Of a stretch of 64,000 nucleotides of DNA, positions 24,606 through 46,512 are shown in pieces. Source of the DNA: a virus (lineage: Duplodnaviria > Heunggongvirae > Uroviricota > Caudoviricetes); IMG/VR virus record IMGVR_UViG_2609459856_000007, positions 28,436-92,435 of that record. The stretch is one strand, 5' to 3'. The notes below the pieces were generated by a model. It was not told where the DNA came from and made no database searches. It saw nothing but the letters and a program-made list of their open reading frames with translations. Within the stretch, counting starts at the first letter, position 1. Every line of letters starts with the position of its first letter. A program made the translations under genes and the position numbers.

Positions 24606-24680
24606 GATGGTGTAGCTCAGTGGTAGAGCGGTTGACTGTTAATCAACTGGTCGGTGGTTCGAGTCCACCCACCATCGCCA
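24606..24680 (+). tRNA. tRNA-Asn (anticodon GTT), CCA encoded
   Basis: Cloverleaf: acceptor GATGGTG/CACCATC, D-arm GCTC..GAGC, anticodon stem GTTGA/TCAAC with loop CTGTTAA, T-arm GGTGG-TTCGAGT-CCACC, discriminator G, CCA. Confidence 0.9.
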
Positions 24681-24684
24681 ACAT

Positions 24685-24759
24685 AGCGCTGAACGGTTTG
24701 GATTCGCCACCACCGTCCGAACGAAAGACTCCGCAAATGTCGCCAGACCGTTCAGCGCT
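24685..24759 (+). other. large imperfect hairpin immediately 3' of tRNA-Asn
   Basis: AGCGCTGAACGGT...ACCGTTCAGCGCT (13-bp perfect arms, about 49-nt loop). Confidence 0.4.
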
Positions 24760-24873
24760 GTGATAGACACGGCAGACGTTTTTTAACCATTGCTTCTAAG
24801 CATCGTAGCAACACTTTTTTCAGCGCAAAATCCAAAGGGGCTTCGGCCCCTTTTTGCTATCTTATCTCTTGGT

Positions 24874-25653
24874 AATATGGGAAACAAACGTAAACAGGCG
24901 CGTCGCGCAGTCCGACAGGCACTGAAGTCAAAGCCACGTATCCAGGACTACGAAATTGATACAATCATCGTTAACGAGCAGGCTGTACACCCTACTCTGC
25001 CACCCACCAAGCCTAAACGCGACAAATCCCCCATCGAAGCGCTTAACGAGGCCCAGGCTCACTATCTTATCTCCCTAGATACCAAAGCTCTGACTTTCGC
25101 CACTGGTGAAGCAGGTTGCGGTAAGACTTACCTGGCTGCCACCGTCGCTGCGCAGCGTCTGTTGGATAAGGAAGTCGAGAAGATCATCGTTACGCGTCCC
25201 GTATTGCAAGCAGAAGAAGATCTGGGCTTCCTTCCGGGTGACATGAGCGAGAAGTTCGCTCCGTTCTTTCGTCCCGTTTATGACGTGCTAAAGAAGCGTT
25301 TGGGTGGCTCATTCCTTGAATATTGCTTAAAGCCAGAGGTGGCCAAAGTAGAAATTGCTCCCTTCGCTTATATGCGTGGGCGCACGTTCGAGAACGCAGT
25401 AGTCATTCTTGATGAGGCGCAAAACGTTACAGCGTCACAAATGAAAATGTTCCTGACCCGTATGGACGAGAATGTTACCGTCATTGTGAACGGTGATATT
25501 ACTCAATGTGATCTGCCCGGTAACGTTAAGTCTGGTCTGGAAGATGCTCTGGCTCGTTTTAGACCTTCCGCCCATGTTGGCCTTGTTGAGTTTACGACCG
25601 AAGACTGCGTGCGATCAGAACTATGCAAAATCGCACTGGAAGCCTATCAGTAA
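24874..25653 (+). CDS. phoH: PhoH-family ATPase
   Basis: Walker A GEAGCGKT, Walker B-like VVILDEAQ; ORF track start 24790 is upstream of likely ATG 24874. Confidence 0.8.
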   Translation, partial: NMGNKRKQARRAVRQALKSKPRIQDYEIDTIIVNEQAVHPTLPPTKPKRDKSPIEALNEAQAHYLISLDTKALTFATGEAGCGKTYLAATVAAQRLLDKEVEKIIVTRPVLQAEEDLGFLPGDMSEKFAPFFRPVYDVLKKRLGGSFLEYCLKPEVAKVEIAPFAYMRGRTFENAVVILDEAQNVTASQMKMFLTRMDENVTVIVNGDITQCDLPGNVKSGLEDALARFRPSAHVGLVEFTTEDCVRSELCKIALEAYQ

Positions 25654-25712
25654 GAGAGTTATACAGCCTCGATATCCAGCCATTTGGTGGCTCTCCCAGA
25701 TTAAACCCAACA

Positions 25713-25745
25713 AAAAGCCCCTTACGGGGCTTATTTATTTTTGGC
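25713..25745. terminator. bidirectional rho-independent terminator between convergent genes
   Basis: A-run, AAGCCCC-ttac-GGGGCTT, T-run. Confidence 0.65.
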
Positions 25746-26228
25746 TGTTACTAGAACGCGTCGTTTCTGTCTACCAAAACCTCTAGTAGTAACGACTCTG
25801 ACTTTCTGAGCGACATCACTTTCATTTACAGGAACCATCTGCCCCGTACTTGCATCATAAGTAAAAAGCTGCCCATCTCGAGGCTCATTCGGTGAGATCA
25901 ATGCCGCAGCTTTAACATTCATATGTGGTCTAAATGCGTACGCAACACCTGTAGCGGTTGCACTTTTGCGTCCCCGACCATCAGTAATCAAGCCAGTAAA
26001 CATTCCAAATTTTCTCGGTACAATTCGGCGACGAAATTTTGGTGTAGAATTTTCAATGATTGTTTTTATGGCAGAGGTAGTAGTGCGGGCAGGCTCCGCA
26101 TTTTCAGAAGAGGATGCGACTACTGTAGTTTGGCCCGCATCGATGGCTCGATTCATAGCATCGATACGTTCAGCCTGGCGAGCACGATATTGCTCAAGCC
26201 GTGTAGAATTTTGGCGTTCGTAAGACAT
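25731..26228 (-). CDS. hypothetical protein
   Basis: Strong RBS GAGGGGAAGG before ATG at 26228. Confidence 0.5.
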   Translation of the reverse strand: MSYERQNSTRLEQYRARQAERIDAMNRAIDAGQTTVVASSSENAEPARTTTSAIKTIIENSTPKFRRRIVPRKFGMFTGLITDGRGRKSATATGVAYAFRPHMNVKAAALISPNEPRDGQLFTYDASTGQMVPVNESDVAQKVRVVTTRGFGRQKRRVLVTAKNK

Positions 26229-26667
26229 TCGCCTTCCCCTCTGGTTCTAGGCCTACTTCAATAGTAAACCCTCTGTGTTTCTTCATGGTTACAAATCGAC
26301 AGTAAACGCCTGAAAGTTTTAGATCTGCTGGCGCAAATGTGTAAAGTGCCACGTTGAATGTATTATAGTGGTCAATAATTATTCTTTCAACGCACTTTAG
26401 GACTCTGGTTCCAGCGCCATTTGGCAGGTTTTCCATTCTTTTAAAATGAGTCTTTTCCTTCCAGTTCTGAACAGAATCGAACACTACGTCGTAATGGTTG
26501 CCGTATTCTGGGAAAATAAAATCCAGCGGAAACTCGGCAGCACAATCATACATGTTTGCTTTGGTGATTTGCGTAAAATACACACGGTATTCAACTCCGG
26601 CTACTGCAAATGTTGCTGAATGTGAACGCGGTTCGCCGTATGGAGCAAGCTCGTCAAAGTTAGTCAT
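26194..26667 (-). CDS. hypothetical protein
   Basis: Start uncertain (TTG 26712 or ATG 26667). Confidence 0.4.
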   Translation of the reverse strand: MTNFDELAPYGEPRSHSATFAVAGVEYRVYFTQITKANMYDCAAEFPLDFIFPEYGNHYDVVFDSVQNWKEKTHFKRMENLPNGAGTRVLKCVERIIIDHYNTFNVALYTFAPADLKLSGVYCRFVTMKKHRGFTIEVGLEPEGKANVLRTPKFYTA

Positions 26668-26802
26668 GATTAATGGGTTAATTGTCCTTTTTAAATATGA
26701 TACCAGATTCAATTAGACCGCGTAAAAACGCCTTACATTTGCTCCCCTTATATTAGCGGTAGATTTCACGCCGACGGCTACTTTTTTTAAAAATAGCGGC
26801 CT

Positions 26803-26837
26803 AAATGATTCCATACTTGTAAGGTATGGAATCATTT
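26803..26837. promoter_or_regulatory. perfect 14-bp inverted repeat with 7-bp spacer, candidate recombinase core site or operator
   Basis: AAATGATTCCATAC-ttgtaag-GTATGGAATCATTT, about 100 bp upstream of tyrosine recombinase gene. Confidence 0.45.
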
Positions 26838-26935
26838 TCAAAAACAGTCTATTTTACTGTTGATCATACAAAAACTGAGGCCTAACACACTGTTTATAAA
26901 TACAGTAAAAACAGGCTTCACTCAGTGAGTGGACT

Positions 26936-28039
26936 ATGAAAAACACTTTTGATAAAGCACGCGCAGCAGAAAACACCTCTAGAGAAGCCATCGAGTATCT
27001 CGAACGCGCTTCCGGTTTGTCAGCAGTGTCGACCACCAATTTCGACGGTGACATGTCGTTTTCTTCCGCATTCATGTTATTCACTCGCTTATCTTTGCTG
27101 ATAACGAGACGTCGACCTGAAATAGCTGTTCATTGTATTTTGATACATGTAATGCCGCATATCTGTGAAGTAAAAGTAAGTGACATTAGTAGGGTTTTAG
27201 TCAACCAGCTGGTGAACCCATTAATACTTGAGGGCAAGATCGTCCAGGGCAGACGTGTGTTCTCGCTGATGAAGCAGTTTCTCAGTTGGTGTGCATTTCA
27301 GGGCTTAATTGATACATCCCCATTGAACGATATGTCGCTTAACAGAGTAGCCGGTGGCGCGAAGCCCACGCCGCGCGAGCGCAAACTGACCGACGCAGAG
27401 GTCTGGGTCTTTTGGAATGTATGGGACTACTTCAACGTATGTGAGGGTACAAAGTGGGCGGCCAGATTATGCCTTGTAGCGGCCAGACGACCAGATGAAG
27501 TGCTCCGAGCTAAAAGATCAGAATTCAACCTCGAATATAATTTATGGAATCAAGGAACGAGGAATAAATCGGCTCGCCAGCACTCGTTACCATTAAGCCC
27601 GCTAATGCGCAAATGTGTTGAGGAGCTGATCAAATACGGAAAAGGCAGCCAGTGGCTTGTTCCTTCAAACAAGAAACAGGGGGAGGATGTGCCAATGTCT
27701 AAGGTGGCCATATCACAGGCGTTGAGAAGGATTTTAGAACGTCCAGAGTTGATGGAGCTTGAGCCATTTACCCCCCGAGATTTGCGTCGTACTGCGCGTA
27801 GTTACTTCCCCGCGTTAGGCATAAGTCAGGAGGTATCCCGCAAAATTATGAACCATAGTCTTGAGGGGATAGATCGAGTATACGATCGGCACGATTATAT
27901 AGACGAGATGCGAGACGCCTTAAACAGTTTTTCGGCGTACATCGCATCAATCGTAGAGAAACAGGATTTAGAGGAGATAGATCATAAGTTCAAGGGAGAT
28001 CGACTCGCTACTGAGCTAATCCGTGTAAATTTCTCATAG
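26936..28039 (+). CDS. tyrosine recombinase / phage integrase family protein
   Basis: C-terminal catalytic region with conserved Arg, LRRTA box, MNHS and RVYDRHDY. Confidence 0.75.
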   Translation: MKNTFDKARAAENTSREAIEYLERASGLSAVSTTNFDGDMSFSSAFMLFTRLSLLITRRRPEIAVHCILIHVMPHICEVKVSDISRVLVNQLVNPLILEGKIVQGRRVFSLMKQFLSWCAFQGLIDTSPLNDMSLNRVAGGAKPTPRERKLTDAEVWVFWNVWDYFNVCEGTKWAARLCLVAARRPDEVLRAKRSEFNLEYNLWNQGTRNKSARQHSLPLSPLMRKCVEELIKYGKGSQWLVPSNKKQGEDVPMSKVAISQALRRILERPELMELEPFTPRDLRRTARSYFPALGISQEVSRKIMNHSLEGIDRVYDRHDYIDEMRDALNSFSAYIASIVEKQDLEEIDHKFKGDRLATELIRVNFS

Positions 28040-28423
28040 CGACTTGATTGCCTCAACAACCCGCTCCGACGCACCACGTTGGTCACCGAAACGTCGACGG
28101 AAGGCTTCCAGAACTAGTTTTTCATCTTTAGTCAGAGGGGCTGTGCCTTCGTCGCGAAAAAACGCTAACAGCTCTGGATGACGCTCTTCCAGCACCATTA
28201 GCATCAATCGGACCGAATCGGCATCCAATGCTTTAGCCAACGCTCTGACCTTGTCGATCGGAAGCGGGATTTTGCCGCTCTTGATAAGTGAAAGATTGTT
28301 AGGATTTTTATAGCCTGCTTCTTTCGCGATGGTCGCCTGGCTTTTCGGAGAAATCGCGATTAAAGCGTCAATGTAAGCAGCGTAGCGACCTACTTTAGCT
28401 TCTGTTATTTCGTTGGTAGCCAT
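28034..28423 (-). CDS. helix-turn-helix transcriptional regulator (XRE-like), possible repressor
   Basis: ATIAKEAGYKNPNNLSLIKSGK HTH; divergent from small ORF 28680. Confidence 0.6.
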   Translation of the reverse strand: MATNEITEAKVGRYAAYIDALIAISPKSQATIAKEAGYKNPNNLSLIKSGKIPLPIDKVRALAKALDADSVRLMLMVLEERHPELLAFFRDEGTAPLTKDEKLVLEAFRRRFGDQRGASERVVEAIKSL

Positions 28424-28455
28424 AATTATCAACCTGCGTGTTTTGATTTTATATG

Positions 28456-28469
28456 GTAAGTGCTTACTG
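28456..28469. promoter_or_regulatory. TAAGTG-CTTAC palindromic motif upstream of HTH gene
   Basis: ggtaagtgcttact. Confidence 0.35.
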
Positions 28470-28679
28470 ATATTACATCAAAGGTTAGTGTTGTAAAGAC
28501 TTATCTATTTTTTTTCGTAGAGTTATTGACCACAAAAGGCTTAATTAATAGACAACTATCTAAAAAACAACTCATTTAAGAACTTAAAACTAAGTTGTAT
28601 TTGATATATAAGTATTCCGTATTGATACAATAGGTAGTAGTATTGCAAGGCATTTACGTGTTCAGTTGGATGATATGAA

Positions 28680-28892
28680 ATGAAAAAAATAACTTCTAAT
28701 TTGATCGCCCTTGAGGTCGGACATACGGTTTCAATTGACGATGATGGGGCAGCAGCCATACTCACTGAACTGCCAACAAAGTCTTTGTTACTTGACATGA
28801 AAGACGCAACCGCATACATCTTTGAGCTAAAGGGCAAGTGCTTCACTCTCATCAATACCGGCTGCGGTTCAGTAGCCGTCCGCACTATTTAA
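28680..28892 (+). CDS. hypothetical small protein
   Basis: 70-aa ORF divergent from regulator gene. Confidence 0.3.
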   Translation: MKKITSNLIALEVGHTVSIDDDGAAAILTELPTKSLLLDMKDATAYIFELKGKCFTLINTGCGSVAVRTI

Positions 28893-29004: not shown

Positions 29005-29103
29005 ATGTCCAAAAAAACCACCAAAGCTGTACTGAAAGAGGTGCAGGATTTTCGCGACTGTGTAAAACGAGTTGTAGCGATGCTTTCAGGTAAACAGATA
29101 TGA
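29005..29103 (+). CDS. 32-aa ORF translationally coupled to vWA gene
   Basis: RBS AAGGAAA; stop TGA overlaps ATG of 29100 gene. Confidence 0.3.
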   Translation: MSKKTTKAVLKEVQDFRDCVKRVVAMLSGKQI

Positions 29104-30650
29104 AAGACAAGCCAGAGGGCAAATTACCAGAACTTAAATCATCTGCCAGAAAGCCGTCGGAGAGCAAAGACGAGTCCGAGGAAACGCCAGAATCAGGTGA
29201 CGAGCCGTCTCATGGTGACTCTGCATCTAAGCCTGCCAAAGGCGAAGGCGATGACAAGGAAGAACGAGAAGATGATGCATCAGAAGAGGAAGATTCTGGG
29301 GATTCCGATTTGCCTGATTCGTTAGATAAGGACTTACCTACACACGTTAAAGATATTAGTGATACAGAAAGTAAATATACAGAAGCAGGCCACGAAGAGT
29401 CAGGAGACACCCCAGAATCCGATGCTATCGGCATGAAATCAAGTGACTCTGACACCGATGGTGATGACGGTGAGGACTCCGATACTGATCGTGGGGAAAC
29501 TGAAGAAGACGTCGAAGGCAAAAAAAATAAAGATGGTGCGGAAGTGCCCAAAGACAGTGAGTCTGGCTTTGTTCCTGCGCCGGATGAAATGACTCTGGAG
29601 GAGGCGCTAAAGGCGCTCGACGAGATGGAAGACGGAATCGGTGAAATGACCGAAGACGCACTGTCGGCCACCATCAGCAAAGAGCTTATGAGCGTCTCAC
29701 CTTCTGATTATCGGCCATACGATCGATCATACGACTTTATCGGGTTGATTGATGGAGCCGAAGAGCATGTGAAGCGCACCAGAAAGACGTTCGGTGCAAT
29801 ACCAATGCACTCACCAGTCGACCGCTACCGTATGGTGCCAGAAGGCAGAAAACTCTTTGAACTGAAAATCGAAAAACATCTGTCTGCAGGCGTTTCTTCG
29901 ACGCTGGCCAAAGACCTGGAGCGGGCCATCGCCAGCCGCAACCGAGTTCAGTTTATACCTGGTCAGAGGCGTGGGCGGATACATGGCGCGAGCCTGTATC
30001 GTCTGGCAATGAACGACGACCGAGTGTTCCGCAAGAAGGAAGACCATAGAGCGGTGAACGCGTGTGTCCAGCAGGTCATCGACTTGTCCGGCTCAATGGA
30101 TGGCGTGAAGATTCAACTGGCCCTAGCCAGTGCCTATACCATTGCGGATGCTTTAGATCGTATCAATGTCCCCAACATCATCACCGGCTTTACCACGTTC
30201 GGTAGCCCAGATTATGAAACCAGGTCGAAGCGCGGGTTTACACGCTTCGAGGCGCTCATGCTGCCCATTATCAAAAACTGGAATGAGAAAGCAAACTCTC
30301 CAGAGATCCGTGCTCGCATGGGATGCGTATGTGAGACGTTCCCCCTGCTCAATAACGTCGATGGTGAGAGTGTCGCGCAACTGGCTACCCTGTTTGCAGG
30401 GCGAATGGAGGACAAAAAGATCATGCTGGTTATGAGTGATGGGGAGCCATGTGCTACAGGTAGTGGATTCCATCAGCATTTACGAACCGTCACCAAAGAA
30501 ATTGAGACCTTGAGCGACATCGAACTGATGGCTATCGGCATTCTGACCGACGAACCACGGCGTTACTACAAAAATTACGCACTGGTTAACAGTGTTGAAG
30601 AGTTAGGGCCGTCAGTCGTCACTGAGTTATCTCGTATCATTCTTGGGTAA
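29100..30650 (+). CDS. von Willebrand factor A domain protein (CobT-like)
   Basis: About 180-aa acidic N-terminal region; MIDAS-like DLSGSM; vWA fold. Confidence 0.75.
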   Translation: MKDKPEGKLPELKSSARKPSESKDESEETPESGDEPSHGDSASKPAKGEGDDKEEREDDASEEEDSGDSDLPDSLDKDLPTHVKDISDTESKYTEAGHEESGDTPESDAIGMKSSDSDTDGDDGEDSDTDRGETEEDVEGKKNKDGAEVPKDSESGFVPAPDEMTLEEALKALDEMEDGIGEMTEDALSATISKELMSVSPSDYRPYDRSYDFIGLIDGAEEHVKRTRKTFGAIPMHSPVDRYRMVPEGRKLFELKIEKHLSAGVSSTLAKDLERAIASRNRVQFIPGQRRGRIHGASLYRLAMNDDRVFRKKEDHRAVNACVQQVIDLSGSMDGVKIQLALASAYTIADALDRINVPNIITGFTTFGSPDYETRSKRGFTRFEALMLPIIKNWNEKANSPEIRARMGCVCETFPLLNNVDGESVAQLATLFAGRMEDKKIMLVMSDGEPCATGSGFHQHLRTVTKEIETLSDIELMAIGILTDEPRRYYKNYALVNSVEELGPSVVTELSRIILG

Positions 30651-30667
30651 TAGCTTTACCCTTAAAA

Positions 30668-30685
30668 ATAAGTAACTGCTTACTA
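30668..30685. promoter_or_regulatory. TAAGTA-n-CTTACT motif
   Basis: ataagtaactgcttacta. Confidence 0.35.
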
Positions 30686-30745
30686 TACAGCATAATATAT
30701 TTCTATAAGATATACCCCACAAACGACAAACAGTAAGGAAAAAAC

Positions 30746-31981
30746 ATGACCGCTACTGCACTACAGCAAGAAGAACATTTGCCGGAAGCCATCGTCTGCA
30801 AGTGGTGTGGCAAATCCTTTCATTACCTGAAATCCCATATCTCTATGGGCCGTTGCGAGAATATTCCTGAGTCTGCGAAGGGTCTGGACGTGGACGAAGT
30901 GGTGAAGATGTACACCTCTGCGTTTCCAGATGAACCAACGATCTCTCGCACGGCACTGGCCAAACTCAATGAGAAGCGTGCCGAAAAAAATTCATGCGAA
31001 GGAAAGGTAGCGGAGATTAGCGCACATCCGGGCTACGCAGGAACGGTCGAATACAAGACCGAACTGGTGGCCGCGCACGAGCTGCTTGGCGTAACGATCA
31101 AAGAGCTGGGAACGTCACGCGGAAAGCCACTACAGGTGACAGTCAACGTCAACACGCCCTATCCGGAGTTCGTACCGGAAGCGAAGAAAAACTATGTGTA
31201 TGGCGACTTCGACCTGATCAAAGACATCTTTATGATGCTGGAAATCGGAATCCCGGGTTATCTCTGGGGCCATGCAGGAACCGGTAAATCTTCTCTTCCT
31301 ACGCAGCTATGTGCCCTGCTAAATCGACCACTGATCCGCGCCCAGCATACGGCATCTATGGAGGAAGCGCACGTTACAGGCCAGATCCTCGCTCGCGATG
31401 GTTCCACCTATTTCGAACCGGGTTTACTAGCGCTGGCGATGAAAAATGGTTGGGTTTACCTCGCTGATGAATATGACTTCGCGTTCCCGCAGATTCTGGG
31501 TGTGTATCAGCCAGTTCTTGAAGGAGAGCCGCTGATCATCAAAGAGGCAACTGCGGACTGGCGCCGCATCACCCCGCATAAACGCTTTGCCTTCATTGGC
31601 ACTGGCAACACTAACGGCTCTGGCGACGAAACAGGTCTCTATCAAGGCACAAACATCCAGAACGCAGCGAACTTCTCGCGTTTTGGCATTGTTTCAAACG
31701 TGAAGTACATGAGTACGAAGGCAGAAGTCAACATGCTGGCTGAAGCAGGCGTCATCCGCGAATACGCCGAGAAGATGGTGAAGTTCGCGAATCTTATCCG
31801 TGAAGGTTATGAAAAGCATCAGATTAGCCAGCCAATCGGGCCTCGTGAGCTGCTGCTGTCCGCCAAAATCGGAATGATGCGCGGTGATTTCTCTGCCGGC
31901 ATCGAAAAGTCGTTTATCAATAAACTTCCATCCACGTCTGCACAGGCAGCGCGTGAAGTGGTTCAGAAGATCTTTGGTTAA
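30746..31981 (+). CDS. AAA+ ATPase, MoxR/CobS-like
   Basis: Walker [10 protein letters not shown], Walker B VYLADEYD; N-terminal [20 protein letters not shown] zinc-finger-like motif. Confidence 0.8.
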
Positions 31982-31983
31982 TC

Positions 31984-32385
31984 GTGCGTAACTGGCTAAT
32001 GAATGGCGGACAATGGTTCTTCATGCTGGACACTGATCAGGAAATATTAGCCTGGGCGCTGGTGGAGCTGGTAAAGCGTCTGCCCTATATCATTGAGTTG
32101 AACACCGGGCAAGAAACTATCGTTATAGCCCATGCCGACTATCCGGATAATGAATACCAATTCGGTAAGGAGGTGCCGCTTTTCAACGTTGTCTGGGCGC
32201 GCGAGCGTATCAGTGATTCGATGGATGATATTGGTGGCGAAATTTCGGGCGCAGATCGTTTTATCTTTGGTCACACTCCGGTGAAAAGCCCGAAGACATT
32301 CTGGAATCAGCAGTATATCGACACTGGTGCCGTATTTTGCGGAAACCTGACATTGATGAAAGTGAAAGGTGATGGTGCAGCATGA
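31984..32385 (+). pseudogene. ppp: 5'-truncated lambda-type Ser/Thr protein phosphatase (C-terminal half only)
   Basis: [10 protein letters not shown]...IVIAHADYP...FIFGHTP...[15 protein letters not shown] aligns to C-terminal half of lambda phosphatase; GDxHG/GDxxDR/GNHE motifs absent; GTG start 3 nt after AAA+ stop. Confidence 0.6.
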
Positions 32386-33083
32386 AGATTGCTTTAGTTT
32401 TTCGCTCTGGTGGTGACTATAACGCTTCCGATGTGCAGTGGCTGGTTAATCAACTGCCAAAAGGCTATGAAATTATTTGCCTGACAGACCTGAAGCGTTT
32501 ACATGTACCTGGCGTCAAAGTTGTCCCATTGATCAACCAGTGGCAAAAGTGCCGTGGCTGGTGGGCGAAAATAGAGTTGTTCCGACCGGATATAACCGAT
32601 GATCTGTTCTATCTGGATTTGGACACGGTTATTGCCGGTGATATACGCCCAATCCTAGAGCATCCACCAACCAGCTTCACCATGCTTAGGGATTTTTACC
32701 ATCCACAATATCGTGGCAGCGGTGCCCTGTGGATACCAAATAGTGTTAAAGCGCATATCTGGAGTTCATTCTGGCAAGATCCGGAAGGTTGGATTTCTCG
32801 TTGTGTCACTACTGAGTGCTGGGGTGACCAGGGGTTCTTACGAAAGGTTATGGGCGATGATACACCAGCATTTCAGGATCTGTATCCAGGATGGTTTGTA
32901 AGTTACAAGGCCGATGTTGTGGAACCTGGTTCAAAATATGCGAGCGCGCGTTACTCCAGGGGGAATGGGGCATTACCAAAAGACTGCCGAATAATCTTTT
33001 TCCACGGCAAACCGCGACCTCGCGAAGTGTCAGAGGATTGGCTTCCCCTTATCAGCTCATTTTTTGAGCGAGAATCAGAATAA
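32382..33083 (+). CDS. hypothetical protein, possible DxD glycosyltransferase-like
   Basis: [11 protein letters not shown] motif. Confidence 0.45.
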
Positions 33084-33111
33084 TATTACTCTAATAATTC
33101 CATATTTTTAA

Positions 33112-33141
33112 AACGTGATGTACGCTCATCACGTTTTTTAT
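33112..33141 (+). terminator. rho-independent terminator
   Basis: AACGTGATG-tacgct-CATCACGTT then TTTTTT. Confidence 0.6.
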
Positions 33142-33150
33142 TAGAGCAAT
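33134..33150. promoter_or_regulatory. C1-operator-like site
   Basis: Reverse complement ATTGCTCTAATAAAAAA vs P1 Op consensus ATTGCTCTAATAAATTT. Confidence 0.4.
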
Positions 33151-33164
33151 CTACAAGGTGCACT

Positions 33165-33383
33165 ATGTGGCCATTCCGACGGAAATATCACTACTGGCTG
33201 ATCGCCTTTGTTACGCCGACCGGCGGTATCAGGCATGTCATCACCAGGTATAGCAACAAGAGACTCACCTTAGCCAGAATTTTACAGGCTGCCATAGGTG
33301 AGGGACTGGATACAAATTGCGTAGTCCTTCCTCCTTCATACTTAGGAAAAATGACCGAAGCACAAGCTAATACGGAACTTTGA
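33165..33383 (+). CDS. hypothetical protein
   Basis: 72-aa ORF. Confidence 0.4.
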   Translation: MWPFRRKYHYWLIAFVTPTGGIRHVITRYSNKRLTLARILQAAIGEGLDTNCVVLPPSYLGKMTEAQANTEL

Positions 33384-33384
33384 A

Positions 33385-34647
33385 ATGATCACTTCAGCAC
33401 AAAACCAATCAATCGAAAATGTATCTATCCCTGACGTCCTGAATGCCGGTATCCCGGCCATTATCCAGAACATCCGGGCCGCGCAACGCCGCGTTAGTTG
33501 TGATGACCTCACAGCGCGTTTTTTTGATAATGCGGTTCAGTCAGCGGAGATGCTTCACGCACTGCTTATTGATGTTTATAACGCAGAAGCTGATAGCCAT
33601 AACTCCCTGGTAGATGCAGCTGAAAATATGCAGTTGGATCTCGGTCTGAAGGGTAAAGAAATTGAAGAGCTTCAGCTGGAAATTGAACATTTGAAACGCC
33701 AGCAACAGGACGCGATCGACGATGCGACGCATGACGCCAACCAGCGTGCTGATAATGCCGAACGTATAAGCATTGAGCTGGAAACAAAACTCAATGAAAT
33801 GACCGCGATGGTTGAACTGCGGAACTCACAGATTTCAACGCTAAAATCTCAATATAAAGAGATCATGAAACTTGATCCTTTTAACCTTGAGAAACGCTAT
33901 AACAAAGCTAAAAGCGAGCGACAGGAACTGCGTAAGCAGGTCGCCGACCTTAACCAACAGCTCAAAAAAACTATTAAAGATGCAAGCGAAGCGCGTGTGG
34001 CATTTGCTAATAAAAAAGCAGAGGTTACCGCGCTGGTTAATGAGAATGCCAAATTTGCGACGCTCAAGAAGGAAATGTATGGCATTACTGAGCGCCGTTT
34101 CCCTGCAAGCAAACTTCATCCGACGTTAGGGCAAATCTCCTTCTTCCCGCGCCTCCTGGCTTATGGGATCTCATCGCCTAAAGAGTTCAATAACGAGCGT
34201 CCTTATATCGTTTCTAAGCTGGGCTTTGCTTATCAGCTCTGCTGCGACATGGGCTATGCCATTGATATCCGGATCAATGAATGGTTGATGCCAAACTTCC
34301 AGCCGTTGGCCATTTTCCGCGAGTTCCAGCCGGAAGGTTGGGTAGAGTTCTTCCATGAATTGATCTGTAAAGAGATGGAAAGCCGCCGCCCGGAACTGGT
34401 CCGTCGAGTTGAGTGGGCGCAAGAGGTTATGTTGGCAGAGGCAGAGCTGCCGTTCGAACCGGAATTTATTGATGATCTGGCAGCTAAAGGGCTGCATACC
34501 CTGTTTGATGTGGTTACCCGCCGTCATGAGCAGTTGGTTGTCGAATTGGGTTTAGAGGAAACAGCGGCAAGAAGACTTCTCGATGTTTGCTATGCACGTA
34601 GCGATGCATGGGAAAAAGAGAACGGCGGCACTATTTACGTTCGCTGA
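33385..34647 (+). CDS. hypothetical coiled-coil protein
   Basis: Central long charged heptad-rich segment. Confidence 0.5.
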   Translation: MITSAQNQSIENVSIPDVLNAGIPAIIQNIRAAQRRVSCDDLTARFFDNAVQSAEMLHALLIDVYNAEADSHNSLVDAAENMQLDLGLKGKEIEELQLEIEHLKRQQQDAIDDATHDANQRADNAERISIELETKLNEMTAMVELRNSQISTLKSQYKEIMKLDPFNLEKRYNKAKSERQELRKQVADLNQQLKKTIKDASEARVAFANKKAEVTALVNENAKFATLKKEMYGITERRFPASKLHPTLGQISFFPRLLAYGISSPKEFNNERPYIVSKLGFAYQLCCDMGYAIDIRINEWLMPNFQPLAIFREFQPEGWVEFFHELICKEMESRRPELVRRVEWAQEVMLAEAELPFEPEFIDDLAAKGLHTLFDVVTRRHEQLVVELGLEETAARRLLDVCYARSDAWEKENGGTIYVR

Positions 34648-34720
34648 TAGTTACAGTGTCACTTTTAATGCTGGTGGAGTGCGTCCCACCAGCATTTTTT
34701 TCGTCCAATGAGGAGGGCAT

Positions 34721-34993
34721 TTGAGTATTTTCAATAAACACGCACACCAGGAACGTCCGTATATCGTCATAGTAGATATTGATGGGACGATAACTCCGGA
34801 TAGTTGGATAAGCTGTAGTGAGCGAATGCCCGCTCAAGATGATTGGATTTTAATTTATTCAAAGCACGGTGAGTATATGGCAGGACAGGTGCAAGGGGAA
34901 TACGTGGAGTTGAGCGATGGCACTTTATCGTGGTTAGGGAATGCCTTGTTCTGGATGCCGCTACCAGAACCGCCGCAGGAGGTGAATCAATGA
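34721..34993 (+). CDS. hypothetical protein
   Basis: 90-aa ORF. Confidence 0.4.
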   Translation: MSIFNKHAHQERPYIVIVDIDGTITPDSWISCSERMPAQDDWILIYSKHGEYMAGQVQGEYVELSDGTLSWLGNALFWMPLPEPPQEVNQ

Positions 34994-35073
34994 GCTGGCC
35001 TGAAGCATTCACCACGGTAGGAATTGTGATGGCGGCAGCACTGGGTTTGTATTCAATTTGTCGCTGGTGGTAA
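34990..35073 (+). CDS. 27-aa hydrophobic peptide ORF, translationally coupled
   Basis: MSWPEAFTTVGIVMAAALGLYSICRWW; ATGA overlap with upstream gene. Confidence 0.25.
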   Translation: MSWPEAFTTVGIVMAAALGLYSICRWW

Positions 35074-35075
35074 CG

Positions 35076-35309
35076 ATGGGAAAAATAACTTTTGTAGTCG
35101 AATTTGAGGATGGTAAAGAGCCACCTGTTAGCGCCAATCTTGATGTTGCTGGTGGCAGGCTTGTTTCGGTTCTATTTGGTGACTACCGAGATGATTTCTT
35201 CCAACCAGAAGAAGTTGATGTGGTGCGAGAGGCATTAAACGAGTTAAGTGTTGATAACGATGATGCTCATGCGGAAATCATCCAAAAAATGGAACTGCTA
35301 ACTCACTAA
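35076..35309 (+). CDS. hypothetical protein
   Basis: ORF track 35058..35309; ATG at 35076. Confidence 0.4.
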   Translation: MGKITFVVEFEDGKEPPVSANLDVAGGRLVSVLFGDYRDDFFQPEEVDVVREALNELSVDNDDAHAEIIQKMELLTH

Positions 35310-35400
35310 ATTATCAATTATGGTGCTATCACCTACGACACCAAGAGAAAATTTATAATGTCAAAAGTAAATGTTTTGATTTTTTCAGTAATTGTAGGTT

Positions 35401-35781
35401 TTGGTTTTTCTGCTGGAGTGCATATTTATATTACGTGGGAAAAAATCATCAACTACGTATGGAGTTGTTTTATTAAGTGAGGTAAGTATGTGGAGAGGTA
35501 ATAGTCATGGCAAAAGCCAGATGATACTTACCGAATATCAGTTTGACCATAAAACCAACAAATCACGTTCAGTATATTTGCTTCGGCACAATAGCCGCGT
35601 AAGGAATACCGTGCTGGAGCAAAATCTGACTGTTGAAATGGATAATTACGGGGGCTTCAAGCCAACAATTTCGCTTGATGATTTTCCTCGTGGTTTAAGC
35701 GAAAGAGAAGCAATGCTGAAATTAGCAGAATGGCTACAAAGATTAAGCATTGCTATTGAAGATAACTGGTCTGAACCTTAA
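35401..35781 (+). CDS. hypothetical protein
   Basis: 126-aa ORF; start uncertain. Confidence 0.4.
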   Translation: MVFLLECIFILRGKKSSTTYGVVLLSEVSMWRGNSHGKSQMILTEYQFDHKTNKSRSVYLLRHNSRVRNTVLEQNLTVEMDNYGGFKPTISLDDFPRGLSEREAMLKLAEWLQRLSIAIEDNWSEP

Positions 35782-35787
35782 ATTTAT

Positions 35788-36162
35788 ATGATGACACTAA
35801 AACATTATCTTGACCGCCCATTATGGACGGCAGCCGCAGGCTATGACTTTAATTATATGGATTGCATGTCTTATACCGCCAATGCATACGACCATTCCTT
35901 CAGTCTGCTGTTTAATTCTTTAAGAATATTGCCGCAAACAGAAGTTGGAGAGCTTCATTTATGGCTATTGGGCTTTATCGCGGCTGGAGTTGGTATTGCT
36001 GTATGGCCTTTTATTTTCTGGCTGGTGGCTGTTGTAGTGTGGTTTAAGTGCAAGACGTACCGGAAAAAGTATTTCTTAGGTGATGGAATGACTGATATTG
36101 CCAAAATGAACATTGAAAAATGGACTAAGGAATGTGAAAAGAAATGGCGCAAAAAGAAATGA
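35788..36162 (+). CDS. membrane protein
   Basis: TM LWLLGFIAAGVGIAVWPFIFWLVAVVVWF. Confidence 0.45.
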   Translation: MMTLKHYLDRPLWTAAAGYDFNYMDCMSYTANAYDHSFSLLFNSLRILPQTEVGELHLWLLGFIAAGVGIAVWPFIFWLVAVVVWFKCKTYRKKYFLGDGMTDIAKMNIEKWTKECEKKWRKKK

Positions 36163-36818
36163 CTACTCTAACGACAGCATACTTACAGCAATTGGTATTT
36201 TTTGCAGGCGAGGCTACTTGTCATCCTGACGCAAACTATTTATTGGAATTTGAGAGGTTAGCGTCACCCGGTATCGTTCTGGAACTGGCCCAACAGGTGC
36301 TGGCCTTAAGACAAAAAGAGCAACATGAAAGTAATACGTGTAGATTGAATTTTGAGCAGTGGCTGGAACAGCAACGCGGAAAAATCGATGTGGACTGTGG
36401 TTGTGTGTCCACTGAAACATTCATGCACTGGCTGCGGGTAGCTTACGAGGCTGGCAACTATCCGGATATTCCGGATAGTTCGGTGCCAGCGCCAGGAAAG
36501 GGCGTCACCGGTGAACGTATCCGCATTAAGCCGCATGTTTATCGCGAACTGGTTAACCGTCTCCACGATACAGCGATCAAGTGTGCTGGCACCCAGCAAT
36601 TACGAGAAAGAATTAGCCGTGTTTTGGGCGACGTTATTACGCCATATCATCATAAACAAGCTGAGAAAAGCGGTCTGGAAAGGTGTCATCTTGAGGCAGC
36701 ATTAAACATTAAGCCGGGGCATACGCTTGGCATTATTGATGCACTGTTGGTTCATAAGATGGCCAGGGCTTTATTGTCGTTGGTGGACGCTGGTGATACA
36801 AGCGAGGGTGAAGTATGA
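36144..36818 (+). CDS. hypothetical protein
   Basis: 224-aa ORF. Confidence 0.45.
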   Translation: MAQKEMTTLTTAYLQQLVFFAGEATCHPDANYLLEFERLASPGIVLELAQQVLALRQKEQHESNTCRLNFEQWLEQQRGKIDVDCGCVSTETFMHWLRVAYEAGNYPDIPDSSVPAPGKGVTGERIRIKPHVYRELVNRLHDTAIKCAGTQQLRERISRVLGDVITPYHHKQAEKSGLERCHLEAALNIKPGHTLGIIDALLVHKMARALLSLVDAGDTSEGEV

Positions 36819-37177
36819 GAGTTGCAGATCACATTAAACACCTTGAAAGAATTATCGAAAACGGTGAACTCTTAAGAGATCAGATGAGACGCACGGCAGA
36901 AGCCAGGGAGGCGATAATCCGCAGTCAGGCTGGTAAATTAAAGCAATTGTCAGAGATTAACACGCTATACAAGAACAGACGTAACCGGGCGGTGATGCGG
37001 CTTCAGAAAGCACGTAATGAAATTAAATTGGTGGAGGCAAAACTGAAAAAACAGATCCAGCGTTACGATCAGCAAGATGCTTTTTATGCCGCCATCAAGG
37101 CGGCTGCTAATGAAATAGGCATCTGGAAGTTGCTGGTGGAGAAAGCAAAGACGAAGTTAAATGCCAACGAAAGCTGA
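36815..37177 (+). CDS. hypothetical coiled-coil protein
   Basis: 120-aa ORF, ATGA overlap. Confidence 0.45.
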   Translation: MRVADHIKHLERIIENGELLRDQMRRTAEAREAIIRSQAGKLKQLSEINTLYKNRRNRAVMRLQKARNEIKLVEAKLKKQIQRYDQQDAFYAAIKAAANEIGIWKLLVEKAKTKLNANES

Positions 37178-37253
37178 ACTACAGGCGCCCACCAGCACAT
37201 ACAGAAAATGATTGTTTCCACATCAAGGAGATTTTAATGTTTCACTGAAACAT

Positions 37254-37391
37254 TAAGTAAGCCAGTGCATAATTCCATTTTTTACTGACCTTAAAAGCAA
37301 AATCAAAACGATGATGAGGATAATAGCCAGAATCTGGCTAATAATAGGCGCATCTAAAAATGCACTCAGGAACTGAAAAAAAGCGTTCATT
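37254..37391 (-). CDS. 45-aa hydrophobic peptide ORF
   Basis: MNAFFQFLSAFLDAPIISQILAIILIIVLILLLRSVKNGIMHWLT; isolated in about 1 kb gene-poor region. Confidence 0.25.
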
Positions 37392-38255
37392 CAGGTGGTT
37401 CCTTGTCAAATGTAAAGGTGCACTTGCTCACGTTGACGTAGAAACCCAACCCCTATATAGTTGGATTCGGTGAATGAAAGTCGTTAACGTGAGCTTACGG
37501 CACATGTTTTCGGAAAAACATCAGGGAACGGCTAATTCCTTGATGCGGGTGGGGTCTGTAATGCAGACCCTATCTATTAACGTCATGATTGCATCTCAAA
37601 TTTTCTCCTTATCTTCAATTAATCTACATACATTCATTTTATCTGTTAGCCACCACAATATGTAGAAAATGGCCCTCTTGCAAGTGCATAACTTTGTGGA
37701 TAACTCAGGAAGGAAAAAGTGGCTTTCGCGCACCTTCGGTCAGACAAGGTGTCCGGGAAAGTCAACGCAAAGAAAAAAATTGTTAAAAATAACGTTTGTT
37801 GGAATTGTATATTTTTATCCCCTTCAATGGTTAGCATTCTATTAACATCTTTTTTTAGAGACAGAAAAACATATCGTAACAACATATATACAGTATTAAG
37901 AGGCGAGTATTATCCTGCGGTGGGAATTCTGGGCGCTGTTAGATTCGACTTTCTCAGCAGGATTACATCGTCAACTTGCGACGTTGCCGTATGACTTTCG
38001 TGTAATAGGTGACAATGATGCGGCTAGTGAGTTACTTGTGAAGTTTTTCGGAAAAGGTTTTGTGGCCTCGGATCTTGATGAGCTACAGCAACATGAAGTG
38101 TCTAATTTGATTTTTAGCCATAGCCAATAAGCATCTCTCCCCTTTGAGGCCACAATTTGTGACCTTAAACAATTTGTTTTCTGCTTTTTCTTATTTGAGA
38201 AAATAACGTTGTTGACAGCTAATAGGCTCGTTGTTGTTATACATGCCTGTATAGA

Positions 38256-38612
38256 TTATGACCGTAAATTATTAGCGGATTTTAAGCCATATTCACCGTT
38301 GTAGAAATTACTCATGTTCCATTCATTAGGAAGTTCTTTTCTGTCCAATGTATAGTGGCGCACGATATAACGATCTTCATCTTCTTCGATGGACAGGCGG
38401 ACATAGCCAATGTGAATCACCGATACGGGCGGTGTTCGTATTGCATAGATGTCGCGGAGATATACCGGCAGCTCGACAAATGCATCAGGTGCATCTGTGA
38501 TGCTCGTTTTTTCACAGTATTCATATAACGCATCGTTGATATCGTTAAGAGATTCATGATCGTATATTTCCAGGTAATTACCGCGATCGCGATTGTACTC
38601 GATTTTAGCCAT
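38256..38612 (-). CDS. hypothetical protein (second gene of LexA-box operon)
   Basis: 118-aa ORF immediately after 38613..39197. Confidence 0.45.
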   Translation of the reverse strand: MAKIEYNRDRGNYLEIYDHESLNDINDALYEYCEKTSITDAPDAFVELPVYLRDIYAIRTPPVSVIHIGYVRLSIEEDEDRYIVRHYTLDRKELPNEWNMSNFYNGEYGLKSANNLRS

Positions 38613-39197
38613 TCAAAATCCCCTGTTATCGTTTTGCATTTCTCTAATCCGGTTCAGAACTACTTCGTGCTGGATTTGGATAGCGGCTTTTTCGTTTTCA
38701 AGCCGGGAAATAGACATCTCTAATTCTTTGCTGTACCAGGCGAGCTGGGCCAGGTTCATCCGGTTGTGGTCGAGAGTTGGAGACACTTCGACGCGATCCC
38801 TTTCTTCCTGCTTTAATGAGAAGAGATTCATCTCATCCCTTGAGGAAAATTCAGCAACAATTTCTTGTTGATGATCCGGTCGCTGCGGCATCCTCGCCAG
38901 TATAAATGGCGGTTCTTTTGAAAACATGAATGTCGGTTCAGACCGTGTTTTTACCCAGCTTGCCTGCTGTCTTTCGGCAAGTTCACAGGCTTCATCATAG
39001 TTATCTGCCAAACAAAGCACGGATGGACGGTCCCACGCCCCACCATTCAGACAATAAACTACAATTTTCCCGTCAGGTTGTGTAACCCCATATGGATGGT
39101 CCCACCAGGCGTCCAGCTGAGCTTTAGAGCGTTTCTCGTTAGGAGTGCAGTCAAAATTTTTGGGCAATACAGGATCGAGAGGAATGCGATTAGGCAT
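38613..39197 (-). CDS. hypothetical protein, likely LexA-regulated
   Basis: Divergent from humD across LexA box. Confidence 0.5.
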   Translation of the reverse strand: MPNRIPLDPVLPKNFDCTPNEKRSKAQLDAWWDHPYGVTQPDGKIVVYCLNGGAWDRPSVLCLADNYDEACELAERQQASWVKTRSEPTFMFSKEPPFILARMPQRPDHQQEIVAEFSSRDEMNLFSLKQEERDRVEVSPTLDHNRMNLAQLAWYSKELEMSISRLENEKAAIQIQHEVVLNRIREMQNDNRGF

Positions 39198-39333
39198 AGC
39201 TAATTCCTTATTAACTGATTGGCAACGAGGTTACGCTGATCCCGCGGTGATGAATAGTAGCAAAGCGCACAAAAATCATCAGCGGTGGTTGATGTACATA
39301 ACGTGTTTGCACCAAAGGTGCTTCTTTAATGTA

Positions 39334-39353
39334 TACTGTGCAGATAAACAGTA
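39334..39353. promoter_or_regulatory. LexA (SOS) box
   Basis: TACTGTgcagataaACAGTA = CTGT-N8-ACAG. Confidence 0.75.
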
Positions 39354-39371
39354 TTTTTGAGGTAAAACGCT

Positions 39372-39761
39372 ATGGGTTTCCCTTCTCCTGTGGCGGATTA
39401 TGTTGAAAACCGAATTTCTCTTGATCAGCAGATAATTAGGCATCCATCAGCAACCTACTTCATGCGGGCAGCTGATAGCCATCACCGTGAGGGAATATTG
39501 CAGGGTGCTTTGCTGGTGGTTGATTCTTCGCTTACTCCAGTTGATGGTTCGCTGCTTGTGTGCGCTATGGAGGGTGAATATCGCATAAAGAGATACAGGA
39601 AGTATCCGCGCCAGCACCTGGAGGATTTAAGCACCGGGAAGAAAGAGGCGTTACCAGTAGATGACGATGGATACACGGGCAGTAATGCTGTTTTTGGTGT
39701 GATCACTCATGTCATCAATGATGCCCGAAGTGGGGAGTTTGATGATTGTCCGGTTATTTAA
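39372..39761 (+). CDS. humD: UmuD'-like protein (S24 peptidase fold, no N-terminal arm)
   Basis: Aligns with UmuD C-terminal region (GFPSPVADYVE..., HPSATYF, Ser in AADS, Lys in RIKRYRK); LexA box upstream. Confidence 0.8.
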   Translation: MGFPSPVADYVENRISLDQQIIRHPSATYFMRAADSHHREGILQGALLVVDSSLTPVDGSLLVCAMEGEYRIKRYRKYPRQHLEDLSTGKKEALPVDDDGYTGSNAVFGVITHVINDARSGEFDDCPVI

Positions 39762-39827
39762 GCTGCAAAGGGCTGGTGCTTTATGCCTGTGAGGTTTATA
39801 ATTGTGTACACATAACGAGTACACGAG

Positions 39828-40055
39828 GTGTTTATGCAATCCATTAACTTCCGTACCGCGCGCGGCAACCTTTCTGAAGTGCTCAACAATGTTGAAGCCG
39901 GGGAAGAGGTTGAAATCACCCGCAGAGGCCGTGAGCCAGCAGTAATTGTCAGCAAGGCTACTTTCGAAGCCTACAAAAAAGCGGCGCTGGATGCTGAATT
40001 TGCATCCCTGTTTGACACCCTGGACTCCACCAACAAGGAACTGGTTAACCGATAA
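39828..40055 (+). CDS. phd: Phd antitoxin
   Basis: 75-aa Phd/YefM-type; stop overlaps doc start by 1 nt (TAATG). Confidence 0.85.
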
Positions 40056-40435
40056 TGAGGCATATATCACCGGAAGAACTTATTGCGCTTCATGATGCGA
40101 ATATAAGCCGCTACGGCGGCCTGCCGGGAATGTCAGATCCGGGTAGGGCAGAGGCCATTATCGGGAGAGTTCAGGCCAGAGTTGCCTACGAAGATATCAC
40201 CGACCTTTTCGAAGTCTCCGCCACCTACCTGGTGGCTACAGCGAGAGGGCATATATTCAATGATGCCAATAAGCGTACCGCGCTAAACAGCGCGCTGCTA
40301 TTTCTACGCCGTAACGGGGTGCAGGTATTTGATTCACCTGAACTGGCAGACCTTACTGTAGGGGCTGCGACTGGCGAGATATCTGTATCTTCTGTCGCCG
40401 ACACGTTACGTAGATTGTATGGTTCTGCGGAGTAG
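40055..40435 (+). CDS. doc: Doc toxin (Fic/Doc family)
   Basis: Fic motif [11 protein letters not shown]. Confidence 0.9.
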
Positions 40436-40619
40436 ATTAATGGCACGCAAATACAACAAATTGTCCCGTGAAGCGTTAAAGATGCTTCTTGATGGCGTGA
40501 GTCGCCGCGAGGTAAAGCAATACCTGGTTGGTAAGCAAATTGGAGCCAGGACTGCTATTGCTGTGTTATGCCGTCAGGAAATGGTTGTGCTTAAACAGAG
40601 AATGCCGGGCAGCAGATAA
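40419..40619 (+). CDS. small hypothetical protein
   Basis: 66-aa ORF; position matches first post-doc gene in P1. Confidence 0.35.
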
Positions 40620-40646
40620 AGCCCAATCAGTGATGAAAGGTGTGAT

Positions 40647-41690
40647 GTGAAAGCCGTAATTACTCCCTTTGTACAAAAAGAGCTTGGCGTCGCCACATTC
40701 AAAGTGGATCAGGAAGTCAGAAAGCTGGTGGAGGCTGGCCGTAAATTTATTATGGAGCCGGTGCCGCGTGAGTTAATCGAGCACATGGACGACGGCCTCG
40801 TTGTTTCCGAGCAAACTATGGCAACAAATGAGGCGTTGCAGCCGTTTTTTAACAGCGATGAACTGTTTCGCCGTATTGGTGGAATTGACGCGCTGGTGGC
40901 GTGGTTGCGCAGGAAAGAGGGGCAATGCCAGGCCGCAGATCGTAGCTGGTGTGACAACCATATTGTCCACGCAGAACGAGACAATAGCGCGGTGTTGTTG
41001 TGCTGGCATCACGATAACCATTACCGGATGCGTGGTTTTAATGAGCTGAAAGAAACGCTGCATAATAATCGCGTTAACTGGATACTGGATGTCGCCCGTC
41101 AGGAAATGGGGCTTTCAGATGGCCATGATTTAAGTATTCAGGAACTGTGCTGGTGGGCTTTCATGCGCAACATGATGCACCTGATGCCGGAAGAAGTTTG
41201 CCGTATATCAATAAATAAGATGAAAGCCGCAACGCAGGATAGCGGACCTCTGAAAGAGGCGGATATTCGCCCGTATGACGATCGCGCTACAGCATATGTT
41301 CAGATGATGGAAGAACGCGCCGCGCCGATGCGTGCAAAAGTATGCCCTGTGGATGTTGACTCTGACCCTGGCATGGCGCATTTCAAAATACCAAAACTGC
41401 AATCGCTAAAATTACCTGAGTACATGGACTTTGTTGCTTCCCGTCCATGCTGTGGGTGTGGAGCGGCGGGAGCTGGCGCTCACATTACGCCTTATATCGT
41501 TCGTCATAGTCGATTATGCGCGCATGACATTTACCCAATTCCTCTGTGCCAGTCATGCCAGCGTGATATTGAGCGTGACCGCGATAATTGGGAGAAGACG
41601 CACGGTAGGCTGGCGATGCATCAACGATTGTTCTTTGATTACGCGCTTGGAGTCGGCGCTATCACAAGTCACTCGTCGAGCGTTAGATAA
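40647..41690 (+). CDS. hypothetical protein with Cys-rich C-terminus
   Basis: 347 aa; CCGCG...CxxC cluster; position matches second post-doc gene in P1. Confidence 0.5.
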
Positions 41691-41691
41691 A

Positions 41692-41708
41692 ATTGCTCTA
41701 ATGTATTG
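41692..41708. promoter_or_regulatory. C1 operator upstream of lpa
   Basis: ATTGCTCTAATGTATTG vs Op consensus. Confidence 0.55.
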
Positions 41709-41778
41709 CTATTTCTTTAATCGAGGGTATTATATTCCACGTTGATTAGTTGACATGGGCTAATCAGTAGGTGACAGG

Positions 41779-42231: not shown

Positions 42232-42317
42232 TTGATTGCTTGCCCGTTCCGGGCCTTTTGACATGTGACTTTCGTTACCCTCGCGTCAAAAAGAGTTTTA
42301 TACGAAAGGAAGCATAA

Positions 42318-44995: not shown

Positions 44996-45019
44996 CTCAT
45001 TGACCATGCCGGATGGAAA

Positions 45020-45871: not shown

Positions 45872-45981
45872 TGATCCTCCTCCAGAATTGACATGGCCAA
45901 CAACTCACAGCGGATTACACTGGGAGTTGTTGGCCACCATTATAGAAGGATCCAACGAAAATAATAGATTTATTAGTGCAT

Positions 45982-46429: not shown

Positions 46430-46446
46430 TAATTTATTAGAGCAAT
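46430..46446. promoter_or_regulatory. C1 operator
   Basis: Reverse complement ATTGCTCTAATAAATTA. Confidence 0.6.
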
Positions 46447-46512
46447 TGTCAAACAACTATGAAAAACAATCCAGTTTTTGGCTGGTGGAGTGGGATTTTT
46501 CTCTCAAAATTT

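Follow-up and report, generated by a model that had tools for sequence, protein, structure and literature searches.

What does a phosphatase gene that has lost its 5' half signify when it lies between two phage-plasmid backbones? We addressed this question in a 64,000-nt stretch of DNA (hereafter, the window), which constitutes the last 64,000 nt of contig JNMN01000021.1 (92,435 bp) from E. coli 3-267-03_S1_C2 (GCA_000700365.1). The gene is a chimeric open reading frame (ORF) at positions 31984-32385 on the + strand, which begins with GTG, encodes 133 amino acids and represents a 5'-truncated remnant of the lambda-type Ser/Thr phosphatase gene ppp. An AAA_5 ATPase gene directly upstream terminates with TAA at 31979-31981, and a 2-nt spacer, TC, separates this stop codon from the GTG. 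An earlier note on this DNA had placed the ORF start at the third base past the ATPase stop, which is right, and at position 31982, which is 2 nt too early; the true start is 31984. GenBank annotates only 31999-32385, from an ATG at 31999 (128 aa, KDU01147.1). Neither the GTG at 31984 nor the ATG at 31999 is preceded by a good Shine-Dalgarno sequence.

The ORF derives from two genes. Its product corresponds to residues 98-230 of P1 Ppp at 98.5% identity (tblastn and alignment), and its residues 3-133 match residues 100-230 of P1 and P7 Ppp at 98-99%. The first two codons (GTG CGT, 31984-31989, + strand) differ in origin from P1 and P7 ppp and come from an unrelated SSU5-family gene. They are the start of a homologue of SSU5_051, the gene that usually follows the AAA ATPase gene in SSU5 and in the plasmid pYLPI6a, where the same sequence is found; SSU5_051 itself begins GTG CGT AAA GGA (V R K G), 3 nt past the SSU5_050 stop codon. 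The ORF is an in-frame fusion of two SSU5_051 codons to ppp codons 100-230. The frame is maintained because the patch of similarity at the junction pairs the GTG of SSU5_051 with Val98 of Ppp, and this alignment of the frames could be fortuitous, given pure-chance odds of one in three. The ppp fragment may be translated from the inherited SSU5_051 start.

What remains of the phosphatase? Ppp is a NinI/lambda-type Ser/Thr protein phosphatase, and 1G5B is the structure of lambda phosphatase. The ORF aligns solely with residues 91-221 of the 221 residues of 1G5B (E 2.7e-46). According to the literature, the first 90 residues of lambda phosphatase carry the GDxHG, GDxxDRG and GNHE motifs, and these residues are therefore missing from the ORF together with their motifs. 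P1 Ppp contains the motifs as GDLHG (27-31), GDLIDRG (56-62) and GNHE (82-85), all before residue 98. Relative to the P1 and P7 genes, the window lacks the first 97-99 codons that carry them, and neither motif I (GDxHG) nor motifs II (GDxxDRG) and III (GNHE) occur in the ORF. The metal ligands of lambda phosphatase are Asp20 and His22 of motif I, Asp49, Asn75 and His76 of motifs II and III, and the C-terminal His139 and His186. The last two are retained in the ORF, in IAHADYP and FGHTP segments that are conserved relative to 1G5B. Pfam Metallophos (PF00149) does not match the ORF at E ≤ 0.01, and NCBIfam NF008516 scores it at 141 bits against a cut-off of 326; the score of full-length P1 Ppp is 274. 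The alignments to P1 Ppp 98-230 and 1G5B 91-221 thus bear out the claim of the earlier note that only the C-terminal half is encoded, without the N-terminal metal-binding motifs. Lacking motifs I-III, the product would not bind the two-metal centre of a functional phosphatase and, judged from its sequence, cannot be an active enzyme. In annotations, we recommend labelling the truncated ppp a pseudogene or the remnant of a fusion, and not a phosphatase.

The DNA to the left of the ORF is SSU5-like. Window positions 1-31991 correspond to SSU5 (NC_018843) from 97952 round its end to 46449 at 71-96% identity (local blastn), and SSU5 homology is confined to the left of 31991. The gene order of SSU5_049 and SSU5_050 is conserved up to the joint: a CobT-like VWA gene (SSU5_049 homologue; 29100-30650, + strand; Pfam CobT_C, E 6.9e-109) is the penultimate SSU5-type gene, and the AAA_5 (CobS/MoxR-like) ATPase gene (SSU5_050 homologue; 30746-31981, + strand; Pfam AAA_5, E 4.5e-15; 411 aa, KDU01143.1 / WP_033870700.1) is the last intact one. 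The blastn matches to SSU5 43436-46449 lie at window positions 29097-29452 and 29507-31991. The left half is most closely related to pYLPI6a (NZ_CP074043.1), a phage-plasmid of E. coli that is related to pSLy3 and SSU5 and has a reduced complement of phage genes. This plasmid is collinear with the window and 98-99.8% identical up to 31991, with 99.6% identity up to base 31991 itself. Past the junction point, pYLPI6a proceeds to its own SSU5_051-like gene and then to the dnaE region, as SSU5 does with its SSU5_051 gene and dnaE, whereas the window proceeds to P1 DNA.

The SSU5-like half has lost much of the phage. The terminase-to-capsid block (SSU5 1772-5702) is kept at window 4998-8929, unlike in pYLPI6a, which lacks it. 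The region encoding connectors, tape measure and minor tail proteins (SSU5 6.1-21.2 kb) is absent, with the deletion point at window 8929-9105, and SSU5 46.45-97.9 kb is not in the window. The complete virion module of SSU5/pSLy3 elements from terminase to tail fibre and their repA/dnaE genes are accordingly not found in the window, and the SSU5-like half is probably defective as a phage. The pattern of loss in pYLPI6a is a different one. Both elements contain a 4.1-kb islet that is absent from SSU5 at the same point. The islet lies within 24606-28876, directly downstream of tRNA-Asn (24606-24680), and encodes a PhoH-like ATPase, a tyrosine integrase (26936-28039) and an Xre-like ORF; no convincing direct repeats flank it (24722-28876).

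From the joint onwards the window is P1-like. Positions 31983-57872 correspond to P1 (NC_005856) from 81050 to 94800 and on from 1 to 14437 at 94-99% identity (local blastn), and identity from 31983 on is 99.4% to P7 and 98.7-98.9% to P1; megablast against phage records places the start of the P7 and P1 matches exactly at 31983 and the end of the SSU5 match at 31991. To the left of 31983, P1 homology is limited to weak tail-fibre similarity (70-74%) at 11754-12407. The order of genes after the truncated ppp, namely pmgQ, pmgR and pmgS, is exactly that of P1 and P7, and the P1 genes from pmgQ to ulx all retain their full length, in keeping with a recent event. The glycosyltransferase-like gene pmgQ/hdmD (32382-33083, + strand) is complete (residues 1-233 at 97.9%, tblastn), and its ATG and the stop of ppp overlap in the sequence ATGA. 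Upstream of ppp, the pmgN-pmgP genes and the operator Oppp of P1 are absent from the window. By coordinates carried over from the P1 annotation, the first P1 C1 operator to the right of the junction is OpmgRa (33085-33101), followed by OpmgRb (33134-33150), which is identical to that of P1; the two flank PpmgR. OpmgRa differs from P1 by a G>A change (ATTACTC versus ATTGCTC), which at the same time alters the -35 hexamer of PpmgR.

The P1-like half contains full-length c1, coi, cre, lpa, pacA, pacB, phd and doc at 88.7-100% identity (tblastn), with pacB the lowest at 88.7% and the other seven at 95.7% or above. The P1-like (Punavirus) hallmarks of C1 repressor with operators, cre/loxP, pacAB with pac, lpa and phd-doc are hence all represented. 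Those of the replicon and virion, repA/parAB, repL and the head and tail genes, are missing from the window, which ends in IS5, and no tblastn match was obtained in the window for repA, parA, repL, gp23 or prt; such genes could lie past the IS5 at which the contig ends. Both the window and its contig end inside this IS5 (63594-64000), the only one in the window. Because neither the P1 replicon and structural genes nor SSU5 repA/dnaE lie in the window, the element must continue beyond the IS5. Further mosaicism is visible within the P1-like half. Of P1 pap, which is replaced, only the initial 25 codons survive, joined to a DUF551-type ORF (34721-34993), and about 1.6 kb without a P1 match follows, which places a mosaic boundary within 34721-36443. 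The stretch 49900-64000 lacks the P1 res/mod region and retains only the C-terminal part of darB. The cargo past darB matches many plasmids, among them p20170403CC-1 and pF1200-2, at 99.9% identity and, going by the annotation of p20170403CC-1, would include a DUF2971 protein, cydAB, a Phd/RelE pair and an AidA-like autotransporter.

How sharp is the switch between the two backbones? A three-way alignment of the window, SSU5 and P1, together with the pYLPI6a alignment, resolves a junction patch, CGTGCGTAA, at 31983-31991. The P1 sequence at this patch is CGTGAATAA, and seven of the nine bases match the window (CGTGnnTAA). The sequence across the joint reads GGTTAATCGTGCGTAAAGGATG in SSU5 and pYLPI6a, GGCAACGTGAATAACTGGCTA in P1 and GGTTAATCGTGCGTAACTGGCTA in the window. 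The last SSU5-specific base is 31988 and the first P1-specific base is 31992; therefore, the crossover lies within the common TAA at 31989-31991. Patches with at least seven of nine matching positions account for 0.16% of the position pairs between the two parental regions, and the microhomology at the joint thus exceeds chance. The 3-nt perfect microhomology would by itself be weak evidence of mechanism. SSU5-type and P1-type sequences abut directly, with no IS element and no filler or inserted DNA at the joint, and the IS copy and target-site duplication expected at the joint of an IS-mediated cointegrate are not found there.

The earlier note had read the truncated gene as the mark of a recombination breakpoint where two unrelated backbones meet, and the abrupt switch between phage-plasmid backbones within 31983-31991 (BLAST versus P1, SSU5 and pYLPI6a) supports this interpretation. 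It had also assigned the P1-type signals to the right of the junction, where we indeed find loxP (46573-46606) and all seven C1-operator-like sites (33134-48543, counted with up to three mismatches to the consensus). Its assignment of all TAAGTA motifs to the left did not survive counting on both strands, which gave 32 to the left and 15 to the right, with approximately 18 and 20 expected. The extended motif ATAAGTAAGTAnnnAC[CT]TAT does occur exclusively on the left, in six copies, and is absent from the P1-like half. These copies (6780, 10325, 17736, 20257, 21174 and 23868) are intergenic, three per strand, and the motif is probably an SSU5-family promoter or operator element. The two halves also differ in GC content (46.8% in the P1-like versus 48.2% in the SSU5-like half) and in Chi sites, which are strongly enriched on the right (18 forward and 8 reverse in 31991-64000 versus 5 and 3 in 1-31990). 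A forward Chi, GCTGGTGG, at 32058-32065 (+ strand) is the first of the 18 in the P1-type half and lies 67 nt to the right of the joint. Since 18 forward Chi sites occur in 32 kb, such proximity is unremarkable and probably coincidental. A Chi-guided origin was considered and rejected; in its orientation, this site would promote events initiated by RecBCD entry from the right and would not protect the P1 arm that was retained.

The ppp gene is evidently dispensable and often decays. In a metagenome contig (L009), a 4-nt deletion (ACGT) lies just upstream of the joint position, 5-10 nt from it, and another contig (L010) has an N-gap at the same spot of ppp. In an E. coli contig (L034 2150-2940; GCA_054663835.1, BAAFNE010000087.1), IS1 is inserted in ppp with a target duplication, TGAATAAC, that equals P1 81052-81059 and window 31985-31992 and holds the crossover TAA. 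Several frameshifted lambdoid ppp homologues break at codons 100-109. The region around ppp codon 100 may be a fragile spot, a view that is subject to considerable ascertainment bias. Two broader candidates were rejected. Contig ends in metagenomes at first resembled a hotspot, in that, among the matches listed for the 128-aa product, 7 of 10 contigs begin 0-2 nt ahead of the ATG at 31999; when the look-up was repeated as a control with products that begin one and five codons further in, 7 and 12 contigs of this type were obtained, and the apparent hotspot is therefore mostly a selection artefact of the exact-product look-up. A mosaic boundary within ppp was likewise discarded, because 570 of 718 PLSDB records span pmgP-ppp-pmgQ contiguously, and ppp is therefore not a common boundary.

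We consider it likely that the joint arose by illegitimate, microhomology-guided recombination of a degraded SSU5/pSLy3-like phage-plasmid with a P1-like segment and that the ORF is the scar of this event. We infer this mechanism from the sequence. The partners would have been two phage-plasmids in the same cell, one P1-like and the other SSU5/pSLy3-like and degraded beforehand; pYLPI6a is the closest relative of the latter. The SSU5 side would have broken two codons into the SSU5_051 homologue and the P1 side at ppp codon 99/100, with crossover via the common TAA inside the 7/9 patch. Such an event would yield a product of fMet/Val-Arg followed by Ppp 100-230, in which the SSU5_051 translation start is kept and phosphatase motifs I-III are lost. 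It would also detach pmgQ, translationally coupled to the ppp stop, from the C1-repressed PpmgN/Oppp and place it downstream of the SSU5 cobT/AAA genes. The joined P1 block runs from the truncated ppp to the truncated darB.

Could the joint instead be an artefact of assembly or library construction, with separate P1-like and SSU5-like plasmids in one strain falsely joined in a contig? The sequence comes from a short-read draft of 2014 in which the contig terminates within IS5, and no second copy of the joint turned up in any collection searched: it has no match in INPHARED phages, PLSDB or 5,426 complete E. coli genomes, the exact 31-mer over it is absent from GTDB species representatives, IMG/VR and JGI metagenomes, and the three PLSDB records that carry both segment types have them at separate places. 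The joint is thus known from one isolate. However, the Logan assembly of SRR1186779 contains a 32.7-kb contig (SRR1186779_124) that spans the joint without a branch and differs from the window by one mismatch in 12,949 nt. This second, independent assembly across the joint makes assembler chimerism unlikely, and an unbranched, unitig-based contig would not be expected if intact parental paths were present; neither an intact path from the AAA gene to SSU5_051 nor one from ppp 5' to 3' would exist at comparable depth. Both assemblies probably stem from the same short-read data set, which leaves some room for a library-level chimera. A repeat-induced misjoin is impossible, because the two sides share only 3 nt perfectly (7/9 imperfectly), far below the assembler k-mer, and the microhomology patch is rarer than chance would provide. 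We therefore regard a chimera as very improbable; the anatomy of the sequence, the parentage of each side and the truncation are direct observations, as is the joint in two assemblies. The genuine joint could have formed directly, as the first crossover between two molecules, or later, by deletion within a cointegrate. The latter, in which the joint is a secondary deletion end-point within a P1 and SSU5-like cointegrate formed elsewhere, for example via IS5 copies, is a reading that we hold as possible and somewhat short of probable. IS5 forms the end of the window and an IS5-family copy is present in pYLPI6a as well, both halves are eroded elsewhere (SSU5 6.1-21.2 kb absent, darB truncated), and short-homology deletions are typically intramolecular events. 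In addition, a search for the reciprocal fusion Ppp(1-99)::SSU5_051(3-67) in a protein collection that holds the other looked-up proteins of this assembly found no such protein (best query coverage, 74%), which mildly favours a non-reciprocal or deletion origin. This absence could nevertheless reflect contig breaks or database clustering, and neither the window nor its contig covers the remainder of the element.

The IS1 insertion in ppp of L034 raises the question of whether an insertion sequence once occupied the joint. In such a scenario, a P1-like parent with IS1 in ppp at TGAATAAC would have formed a cointegrate or broken at an IS1 end, and slippage between the similar flanks would then have removed IS1. 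The 8-bp duplication in L034 contains the crossover TAA, IS1 forms cointegrates and P1 carries a resident IS1 according to its annotation. On the other hand, IS1 is found neither at the joint nor anywhere else in the window, the L034 flank is 98.6% identical to the window and thereby no closer than ordinary P1-like plasmids, and the ppp::IS1 junction is absent from the 5,426 complete E. coli genomes, so that no such parent lineage is evident and we rejected it as a candidate. Given approximately 10-16 independent ppp lesions, one within a few nucleotides of the joint is not very improbable. The scenario also demands more steps than direct illegitimate recombination, and we judge it to be improbable. 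Even less credible, to the point of being nearly dismissible, is the idea that the half-length protein is a selected functional product, such as a regulatory or dominant-negative C-terminal phosphatase domain. A start codon and the frame are kept, as are the equivalents of lambda phosphatase His139 and His186, and the same 128-aa ORF is called in the P1-like contigs with frameshifted ppp (L009 and L010). Motifs I-III and most metal ligands are missing, however, no convincing ribosome-binding site is present, the hybrid form is a singleton, and the truncation of ppp at many positions by IS629, IS1, a 4-nt deletion and frameshifts is the pattern of dispensable-gene decay.

Direct illegitimate recombination, as favoured here, differs from the published routes to P1-derived fusions with which we compared it. 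Pfeifer & Rocha 2024 (PMC10879196) and PMC9748602 document P1-derived hybrid and defective plasmids well, and the latter ascribes the formation of the P1-like fusion plasmid pHNSHP24 to IS26. In P1-derived hybrid plasmids, as in the window, P1-like backbones have recombined with other replicons and lost phage genes, and the darB-proximal cargo (cydAB, autotransporter, phd/relE) of p20170403CC-1 and others is the same at 99.9% identity. The ppp gene of pF1200-2 is also truncated, but IS629 lies at its break. The compared published fusions are thus IS-mediated (IS629 in pF1200-2, IS26 in pHNSHP24), whereas the window joint has no IS and 3 nt of homology. Moreover, the partner in the window is a member of another phage-plasmid family (SSU5/pSLy3) and not a conjugative resistance plasmid. 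We found no described P1-SSU5 joint. The tyPPing preprint anticipates co-integrates between phage-plasmids and lists pYLPI6a as a pSLy3-related element that escapes typing. IS-free joining of this kind opens a route to chimeric elements, which, because hybrids fail typing thresholds, are excluded or missed by large surveys. The contig analysed here should be typed neither as a P1-like nor as an SSU5-like phage-plasmid.

What might such a hybrid be to its host and to P1? There is a slim chance that the element is a maintained chimeric phage-plasmid, namely a tail-less SSU5/pSLy3-like plasmid that has captured a P1 block and lives as a satellite-like parasite of P1. If so, the captured lpa-pacAB-c1-lox-cre-phd/doc genes would confer P1 immunity, addiction, pac-initiated headful packaging and Cre-lox recircularisation, and a helper P1 could package and transduce the element, which would itself keep out superinfecting P1. 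Independently of this possibility, the joint is a real, precisely mapped scar and a new instance of a known, ordinary phenomenon. The in-frame fusion of SSU5_051 to ppp is a new detail, and the case differs from known ones in its SSU5-family partner and in an IS-free joint that is resolved to the base. When two common E. coli phage-plasmids are co-resident, such recombination is an expected outcome, and the window provides a base-resolved case in which P1 and SSU5/pSLy3 phage-plasmids have recombined without an IS element or long homology.
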